64,000 bases of DNA. It comes from Chloroflexota bacterium. GTDB lineage: Bacteria; Chloroflexota; Anaerolineae; Promineifilales; Promineifilaceae. Below, a report on this DNA, generated by a model with database tools, continues. The DNA lies in NCBI GenBank assembly GCA_024277135.1, contig JAJRVV010000103.1, positions 1,207 through 65,206 on the forward strand, written 5' to 3'. The letters are not shown here.

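Follow-up and report, generated by a model that had tools for sequence, protein, structure and literature searches.

Abundance, frames and conservation of the palindrome

The palindromic octamer ACGGCCGT is present in 115 exact copies in the 64,000-nt window, in agreement with the 110-125 copies that a preliminary description had estimated by hand. Two other figures of that description are corrected here, as the first 10 kb contain 24 copies rather than about 26 and the G+C content of the window is 55.7 % rather than about 62 %; the extension to GACGGCCGTC, which had been called frequent, does exist but is carried by just 21 of the 115 copies. Shuffles preserving dinucleotides give an expectation of 1.46 +/- 1.14 copies (maximum 5) and Markov models of order 0-4 give 1.4-12, with observed/expected ratios of 79 for the shuffles and of 84, 42, and 27 for orders 1, 2, and 3, respectively. 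The expectations of 48 and 95 from models of order 5 and 6 are circular, because the 7-mers ACGGCCG (142 occurrences) and CGGCCGT (140) are nearly all parts of the motif. The runner-up palindromic octamer in the window has 9 copies, and when both strands are summed only CGGCCGTC, an 8-mer that overlaps ACGGCCGT, scores equally high. Among the 64 possible 6-bp palindromes, the core CGGCCG shows the strongest over-representation in the window, and 115 of its 209 occurrences have A...T as outer bases. The excess also stands against codon-aware nulls, which the preliminary description had proposed as a check: using 58 ORFs called by codon-usage score, a protein-preserving shuffle of synonymous codons within each gene yields 15.3 +/- 3.5 copies (maximum 27) and a shuffle of codon order yields 1.95 (maximum 8), versus 112 observed in coding sequence.

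The mean spacing of the copies is 557 bp with a CV of 0.83-0.87, and regular spacing is unsupported within these 64 kb (CV 0.83; KS test against an exponential distribution, p = 0.23). A region of low GC3 at 29.7-43.7 kb holds 0.9 copies per kb versus 2.0 elsewhere, with an observed/expected ratio of about 60 versus about 80. Being still about 60-fold enriched, this region was rejected as a freshly acquired island free of the word. Four toxin-antitoxin genes in the same region have zero copies, but they are too short to count.

The preliminary description had reported that the copies are read in all three frames and visibly skew the encoded proteins, and both points are borne out. Among the 108 copies lying wholly within called ORFs, 60 are read as T-A-V (ACG GCC GTn), 35 as [N/D/H/Y]-G-R, and 13 as R-P-x, with both gene orientations represented; the remaining 7 copies lie outside called ORFs, and coding sequence carries 1.9 copies per kb where non-coding sequence carries 1.0. 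T-A-V is found 62 times where amino-acid composition predicts 7.2 (8.6-fold), and 61 of these 62 are encoded with ACG-GCC, while the reversed tripeptide V-A-T is found 6 times against the same expectation of 7.2. Similarly, [NDHY]-G-R is found 42 times versus 12 expected. The codons involved are common in the window, with ACG making up 36 % of Thr codons, GCC 48 % of Ala, GGC 53 % of Gly, CGG 35 % of Arg, and CCG 41 % of Pro.

The best named relatives of the window's MurJ (murJ, 48237-49844, reverse strand) are MAGs of Chloroflexota, Anaerolineae, and Anaerolineales, the closest being 87 % identical and the next group about 69 %; a separate scan of genome contigs with MurJ yielded just one locus, from Caulobacteraceae (L001, 31 % identity). 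Six murJ loci were retrieved from NCBI, ENA, and Logan assemblies, and in each of them ACGGCCGT outranks all other palindromic octamers, at 6-28 copies per 10 kb and a G+C content of 50-62 %. For comparison, 80 metagenomic loci around phosphoglycerate kinase (PGK) genes were fetched. ACGGCCGT is the top palindromic octamer in 12 of them, with PGK identities of 73-79 % to the window; it is not the top word in three others of 74-78 % identity (L014, L017, and L019), which show no excess. The excess is also missing from a high-G+C sister clade and from every PGK locus of 66 % identity or less. A further locus of 72 % PGK identity, L033, instead carries 14 copies of CCGGCCGG, a word that shares the CGGCCG core, within its 7.7 kb. 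In total, 17 cellular loci of 46-62 % G+C have ACGGCCGT as their top palindromic octamer, and the excess appears in independent assemblies from NCBI, ENA, JGI, and Logan (two of the loci, L003 and L004, come from GCA_024762695.1 and GCA_050288645.1). The excess is thus a property of a clade in which the word has been lost, or gained repeatedly, and in which a sister word has the core in common. Palindromic extension of the word likewise differs by lineage, being G...C in the window and A...T in L003 and in two further relatives, L005 and L006.

The window's PGK gene (17573-18817, forward strand) contains two copies. In a codon alignment, the copy at 18173 is common to 15 sequences and converts an outgroup I/V-A-V to T-A-V, and the copy at 17803 is common to 6 sequences and converts the conserved SHLGRPK to SHLGRPS (GGA CGG CCG TCn), thereby replacing a conserved lysine. 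Both replacements (K to S, and I/V to T) are confined to lineages carrying ACGGCCGT; at the same two sites L014, a close relative without the excess, has ACA GCC GTT and GGC CGG CCG AAA. In murJ, two window copies are common to 6 of 7 sequences spanning 63-87 % protein identity and a third only to the closest relative, and the relatives' murJ genes contain private copies that arose through amino-acid replacement. Across the two aligned genes, at a nucleotide identity of about 70-76 %, four of the five alignable window copies fall within the 94.5-99.6th percentile of 8-mer conservation. The orthologous sites are free of insertions and deletions, and the word therefore spread by substitution. 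ACGGCCGT is thus imposed at the level of DNA and not via codon or amino-acid usage, it overrides protein conservation, and a DNA-level process both writes and keeps it. The resulting distortion of proteins, which extends from the 8.6-fold T-A-V enrichment to the replacement of conserved residues, affects homology-based inference in this lineage.

Flanking composition, near-miss words and mobile elements

On cellular DNA, each copy of ACGGCCGT centres a strand-symmetric composition gradient, in which, on either strand, about 35 nt on the 5' side are enriched in G and about 35 nt on the 3' side are enriched in C. GC skew in the window is +0.22 at 3-25 nt 5' of the copies and -0.23 at 3-25 nt 3' of them (n = 115), and the corresponding values in relatives are +0.29 and -0.27 (n = 227). 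The gradient was found in 14 of 14 cellular loci with the excess, at +0.11 to +0.33. As controls, 19 palindromic words were checked; 8 were too rare to score, and the gradient appeared around none of the other 11, which each occur more than 20 times. The scored controls include GGCC outside the motif, CGGCCG with other outer bases, CCGG, GCGC, GATC, and ACGT. CGGCCG in lineages without the excess (n = 497) shows no gradient either. When sequences with the copy were compared with orthologues without it at 11 sites, the former had the larger gradient 5' of the copy at every site and 3' of it at 8 of the 11.

The skew is most pronounced at codon position 3, with +0.45 to +0.47 upstream and -0.23 to -0.42 downstream versus a background of -0.002, and the gradient is equal in all three reading frames of ACGGCCGT. 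We would like to note that its independence of the gene strand is uninformative, because with a palindrome an effect tied to coding sense would also look strand-symmetric. The codon position 3 values, the presence in all three frames, and the absence from phage genes with the same frames (see below) nevertheless rule out a protein- or mRNA-level cause, and the gradient is therefore an effect at the DNA level.

Immediately next to the copies, G makes up 50-56 % of bases at positions -4 and -3, and this GG together with CC at +3/+4 prolongs the symmetric consensus. Past -4, the skew falls smoothly from about +0.3 to zero at about 35 nt, with only a period-3 ripple on top. No 10-11 bp periodicity was seen in the gradient, which led us to reject the footprint of a helically phased protein, and the monotonic decay points instead to tract lengths. 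Within the flank, the G fraction is higher by about 0.10 and the C fraction lower by about 0.06, with T unchanged; simple C-to-T deamination of exposed single strands was rejected on this unchanged T content. A hairpin or cruciform was also rejected, since mirrored flank positions are complementary only as often as base frequencies predict. The tetramers GGGG, TGGG, GGTG, GTGG, and GATG are enriched in the 5' flank. A strand-specific, distance-limited process thus adjoins each copy on cellular DNA.

Near-miss words were counted on both strands of 211 kb of pooled cellular DNA with the excess. Here 688 perfect copies stand against 40 words deviating at one inner position (70 expected), a ratio of 17 to 1. 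The variants with G or T at the outer position occur at 3.1-3.5 times expectation, whereas the nine inner variants occur at 0.3-1.0 times, eight of them at 0.8 or less. The inner one-off words lack the flank gradient, and are therefore background sequence and not decayed copies. With 2-10 counts per word in these 211 kb, the C-to-T and G-to-A variants ATGGCCGT, ACAGCCGT, and ACGACCGT stand at 0.80, 0.56, and 0.54 of expectation versus 0.31-1.04 for transversion variants; no specific shortage of C-to-T or G-to-A one-off words was seen, the depletion being general and mild (0.3-0.8).

The word is also carried by mobile elements. Scanning IMG/VR for three copies of ACGGCCGT within about 100 nt, a pattern that favours dense contigs and does not identify hosts, retrieved 26 stretches, 13 of which are dense and hold 301 copies in 128 kb. 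The phage and plasmid-like contigs have 14-37 copies per 10 kb, and the densest, at 25-37, equal or exceed the host. They include a phage (L106) recognisable by its portal, large terminase, and head morphogenesis genes, a plasmid-like 100-kb contig encoding ParA, FtsK/SpoIIIE, a lytic transglycosylase, and an anti-repressor (L091 and L095), and a plasmid-like contig encoding an actin-like segregation protein (L104); another of the retrieved stretches, L105, has W-CGGCCG-W. Frame use in the mobile elements is 102/59/27, as in the host. The long-range gradient, however, was found in none of the 11 dense viral or plasmid-like loci scored (-0.06 to +0.06).

Likeness to HIP1

Literature searches retrieved no report of ACGGCCGT as a bacterial repeat, with matches only to primers and unrelated sequences. 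It is a real and strong HIP-like element of Anaerolineae-type Chloroflexota and their mobile elements, and apparently an undescribed one. The parallel to HIP1 drawn in the preliminary description is upheld: ACGGCCGT shows every feature of the HIP class that was tested, and it is not HIP1 proper, as both word and phylum differ. HIP1 is the word GCGATCGC of cyanobacteria (Robinson 1995; Elhai 2015, PMC4390886; Xu, Lawrence and Durand 2018, PMC5861425). Like HIP1, ACGGCCGT is an octamer palindrome consisting of a 6-bp restriction-type core and a symmetric outer pair, its roughly 80-fold excess and about 1.8 copies per kb lie within the 15-300-fold and 0.3-2.7 per kb published for HIP1, it is found within and between genes and in all frames, it arises by substitution and not by insertion, and it is conserved between orthologues. 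In both cases the one-base deviations are mostly at the first and last positions, palindromic extensions vary between lineages, the word is found clade-wide with some members having lost it, and sister lineages use other words built around an unchanged core (for ACGGCCGT, the CCGGCCGG of L033; for HIP1, TCGATCGA and GGGATCCC).

The two differ in their core (CGGCCG/GGCC versus CGATCG/GATC) and phylum (Chloroflexota versus cyanobacteria), and inner one-off copies are far rarer for ACGGCCGT. The flank gradient is undescribed for HIP1, and the word "skew" appears in neither PMC4390886 nor PMC5861425. In the Synechococcus elongatus PCC 7942 plasmid pANL, 95 HIP1 copies gave no gradient (-0.02 +/- 0.02), but a plasmid makes a poor control here, given that ACGGCCGT copies on mobile elements show no gradient either. 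For chromosomal HIP1, homologues of the pANL cysK led to non-cyanobacterial contigs, and RppB homologues gave a small sample of just 36 copies in three stretches (Synechocystis and Leptothermofonsia), with +0.057 +/- 0.033. Judged by these small samples, HIP1 would have at most a much weaker gradient than ACGGCCGT.

HIP1 has been known for 30 years without an agreed cause or function and has been treated as a cyanobacterial peculiarity. A methylation-directed repair ratchet was proposed for it by Elhai in 2015 (PMC4390886), where the class is tied to a DNA methyltransferase of the same genome with specificity for the word or its core. A second independent system, with another word in another phylum and the same population-genetic signature, would replace a single case with a comparison. 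Natural contrasts are available in the close relatives that lost ACGGCCGT, the CCGGCCGG sister lineage, and the phages bearing the word, and phylogenetic profiling across these could find the enzyme. The gradient adds a quantitative handle that HIP1 studies lack, and any mechanism must reproduce its direction, its length scale of about 35 nt, and its base specificity. Independently of mechanism, ACGGCCGT is a sharp k-mer marker for binning these abundant Chloroflexota of sludge and digesters and for assigning their phages and plasmids to hosts.

Candidate mechanisms

We read ACGGCCGT as an iterated palindrome comparable to HIP1 in an Anaerolineae-type Chloroflexota lineage and favour as its cause, with a probability of about 0.4, a host sequence-specific DNA enzyme system that acts as a molecular drive. 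Such a system would read the CGGCCG core along with the outer A/T pair, and would most likely pair a cytosine methyltransferase with an activity for nicking or short-patch repair, modelled on Elhai's methylation-directed repair ratchet for HIP1 and on Dcm/Vsr very-short-patch repair. Repair biased toward the word would turn near-cognates into ACGGCCGT and shield present copies from decay, making the abundance the outcome of molecular drive rather than of selection on thousands of separate sites. Either strand can be nicked at ACGGCCGT because it is a palindrome; excision and resynthesis would leave the site strand-specifically, in opposite directions on the two strands, and a slight base bias acting over long times would produce the mirror-image G/C gradient, which would thus record the lengths of the tracts. 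The word would reach phages and plasmids through the same drive or through selection to resemble host DNA, and these elements would lack the footprint through being evolutionarily younger or through being replicated and repaired differently.

The 17-to-1 sharpness, over what extrapolates to thousands of sites per genome, would be better explained by a correcting drive than by site-by-site selection, and the smooth mirror-image gradient is consistent with tracts starting at the site, as nick-primed excision and resynthesis would give. Several observations weigh against such a drive. The net flank change is C to G and not C to T, for which simple deamination does not account, and we know of no bacterial polymerase bias that gives such a change. 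The one-off words show no T:G-specific signature at their low counts, and no candidate enzyme was found in the window or in the fetched loci: Pfam and NCBIfam scans of the 58 window ORFs detected neither cytosine methyltransferases of the C5 or N4 type nor Vsr or restriction genes, a motif scan found no C5 methyltransferase with a PCQ motif in any fetched locus, and no nicking endonuclease was found in the window or the other fetched loci. As these negatives cover 64 kb of this genome and short loci of others, they are uninformative about the drive. The sole DNA methyltransferase in the window (1927-2799, reverse strand) is of the D12 class and matches DpnM (E = 1e-63) and E. coli Dam (about 1e-49), and is therefore a GATC enzyme; GATC itself is mildly under-represented in the window, at 193 occurrences versus 242-343 expected. 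The mobile-element densities, equal to or above those of the host, further suggest positive selection for ACGGCCGT there, which would be superfluous under a pure drive. Finally, orthologous conservation of the same kind was taken by Xu et al. (2018) as evidence for selection on HIP1 and against biased repair (PMC5861425).

The closest enzymatic precedent for the drive is that of E. coli, where Dcm and Vsr, a methyltransferase and a mismatch-specific nicking endonuclease, together with short-patch resynthesis by Pol I shift oligonucleotide frequencies toward the methylated word. To our knowledge, this is the one established case of such a shift by a methyltransferase with short-patch repair. 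It shares with the process suggested by the ACGGCCGT gradient a nick-primed, strand-specific action over short tracts. It differs in that the E. coli effect is modest and concerns 4-5-mers, versus an 80-fold excess of an 8-mer, in that the window contains no dcm/vsr-like pair and no T:G-specific signature was seen in the few counts of one-off words, and in that the tract around ACGGCCGT would be about 35 nt, longer than the roughly 10 nt or less of very-short-patch repair.

It is possible, and we hold this tentatively, that the gradient is a fossil footprint left by a host system that, at each of the several thousand copies extrapolated per genome, repeatedly nicks one strand and processes about 5-35 nt outward, oppositely on the two strands, while favouring C-to-G changes of the template or exposed strand. 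The copies of ACGGCCGT would then be the entry points of an undescribed site-specific repair or recombination system that writes its own site and keeps a legible record of how long its tracts are, and mobile elements would copy the word to pass as host without acquiring the footprint. If the footprint proved negative in cyanobacterial chromosomes, ACGGCCGT would represent a mechanistically distinct class of iterated palindrome, and if positive it would provide the first mechanistic handle on HIP1.

A selected "self" site resembling Chi seems unlikely to us, though it accommodates several of the observations. In this case the palindrome would tame a helicase-nuclease of the AddAB/RecBCD type from either direction, phages and plasmids would carry it against degradation, and the G-rich 5' flank would mark the strand that becomes the 3' single-stranded tail for RecA loading. 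Chi is likewise an over-represented short word, has a G-rich context, and is enriched in some phages that rely on host recombination; in E. coli it reportedly lies within GT-rich islands of preferred RecA pairing sequence (the work of Tracy, Chedin and Kowalczykowski in 1997). The tetramers enriched in the 5' flank and the strand-symmetric gradient pointing into the site agree with this, as do the 25-37 copies per 10 kb, at least host density, in the phage L106 and the plasmid-like L091 and L104, though these viral contigs were ascertained by a pattern favouring dense ones. The lack of a gradient on mobile elements would follow if phages needed only attenuation of the nuclease and chromosomes also RecA loading. 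However, E. coli Chi has a few-fold excess and one site per about 5 kb, and an 80-fold excess with one site per 500 bp goes far beyond this. All characterised Chi sites known to us are non-palindromic and oriented with replication, whereas ACGGCCGT is its own reverse complement and has no orientation. It would also be hard to sustain weak selection that acts, at each of thousands of sites, on some 60 synonymous positions in the flanks, and no AddAB or RecBCD gene was seen in the window.

We consider it improbable that ACGGCCGT is a DNA uptake signal, in which competent cells prefer DNA with the word and uptake followed by recombination drives its density, as for USS and DUS. The extended flank preference of about 30 bp known for the Haemophilus USS would speak for it, as would the clade-specificity of the word with its related variants. 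The USS AAGTGCGGT of Haemophilus and the DUS GCCGTCTGAA of Neisseria likewise have hundreds to thousands of copies, in coding sequence and in all frames, with a frame preference and enriched tripeptides, and ACGGCCGT shares this signature if its copy number is extrapolated to the genome. These known uptake sequences, in contrast, are not palindromes, and no competence genes were noticed in the window. The smooth gradient, its maximum at synonymous sites, and its absence from mobile elements also do not suit a receptor preference, which any donor DNA would need to satisfy. USS and DUS have been attributed to molecular drive rather than to selection at each site (PMC2817400, PMC1939737), and an uptake-type drive has lately been proposed for HIP1 (bioRxiv 10.64898/2026.06.24.733823). 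The tripeptide enrichment caused by USS and DUS is about 2-fold (Findlay and Redfield 2009, PMC2817400), versus 8.6-fold for ACGGCCGT, and these signals are scarce in genes without homologues in related genomes (PMC2817400), whereas ACGGCCGT is at least as dense in phage and plasmid-like DNA as in the host (14-37 copies per 10 kb overall) and still about 60-fold enriched in the low-GC3 region.

We give somewhat less credence again to the idea that ACGGCCGT is the binding site of an abundant symmetric nucleoid or chromosome-organising protein with every site kept by selection, a role that Xu et al. (2018) favoured for HIP1 (PMC5861425). A palindrome suits a dimer, copies are conserved between orthologues, and the GG and CC next to the site prolong its symmetry. 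Copies are spaced a little more evenly than at random, and extreme gaps, short or long, are under-represented (CV 0.83), but the spacing is not statistically distinct from exponential, and a 64-kb window is too short for the periodicity of 10-90 kb reported for HIP1. The absence of helical phasing in the gradient weighs against this role, the equal density in phages argues against a chromosome-specific role, and selection maintaining 17 perfect copies per inner one-off at thousands of sites would presumably impose a large load.

The preliminary description had also named a defence signal among the candidates, and we regard as very improbable that ACGGCCGT is a restriction-modification target by which foreign DNA is exposed. 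ACGGCCGT does include the EagI (CGGCCG) and HaeIII (GGCC) sites, and many other 6-bp palindromes are very strongly avoided in the window, a clear indication of restriction pressure in this lineage. Restriction targets are, however, avoided in hosts and their phages, whereas the word has an enrichment of about 80-fold in the host and an equal or greater one in phage and plasmid-like contigs, and its core heads the over-represented 6-bp palindromes; a role as cleavage target is thereby contradicted, and a methyltransferase acting at the site belongs to the favoured reading instead. The common codons of the commonest frames and the high-order (circular) Markov expectations of 48 and 95 could suggest that nothing more than codon usage, protein composition, base composition, or faulty assembly lies behind the excess; this is already refuted by the 112 copies observed where about 15 are expected with proteins and codon usage fixed and about 2 with codon order shuffled, by the recurrence of the excess in assemblies from four sources at 46-62 % G+C, and by its absence in close relatives of similar composition.

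One further observation concerns the outer positions. The half-site GCGGCCGT (n = 78) retains a G-rich 5' flank (+0.18), while its 3' gradient is nearly gone (-0.06), a pattern in which the G-ward pressure may be eroding the outer A as well.

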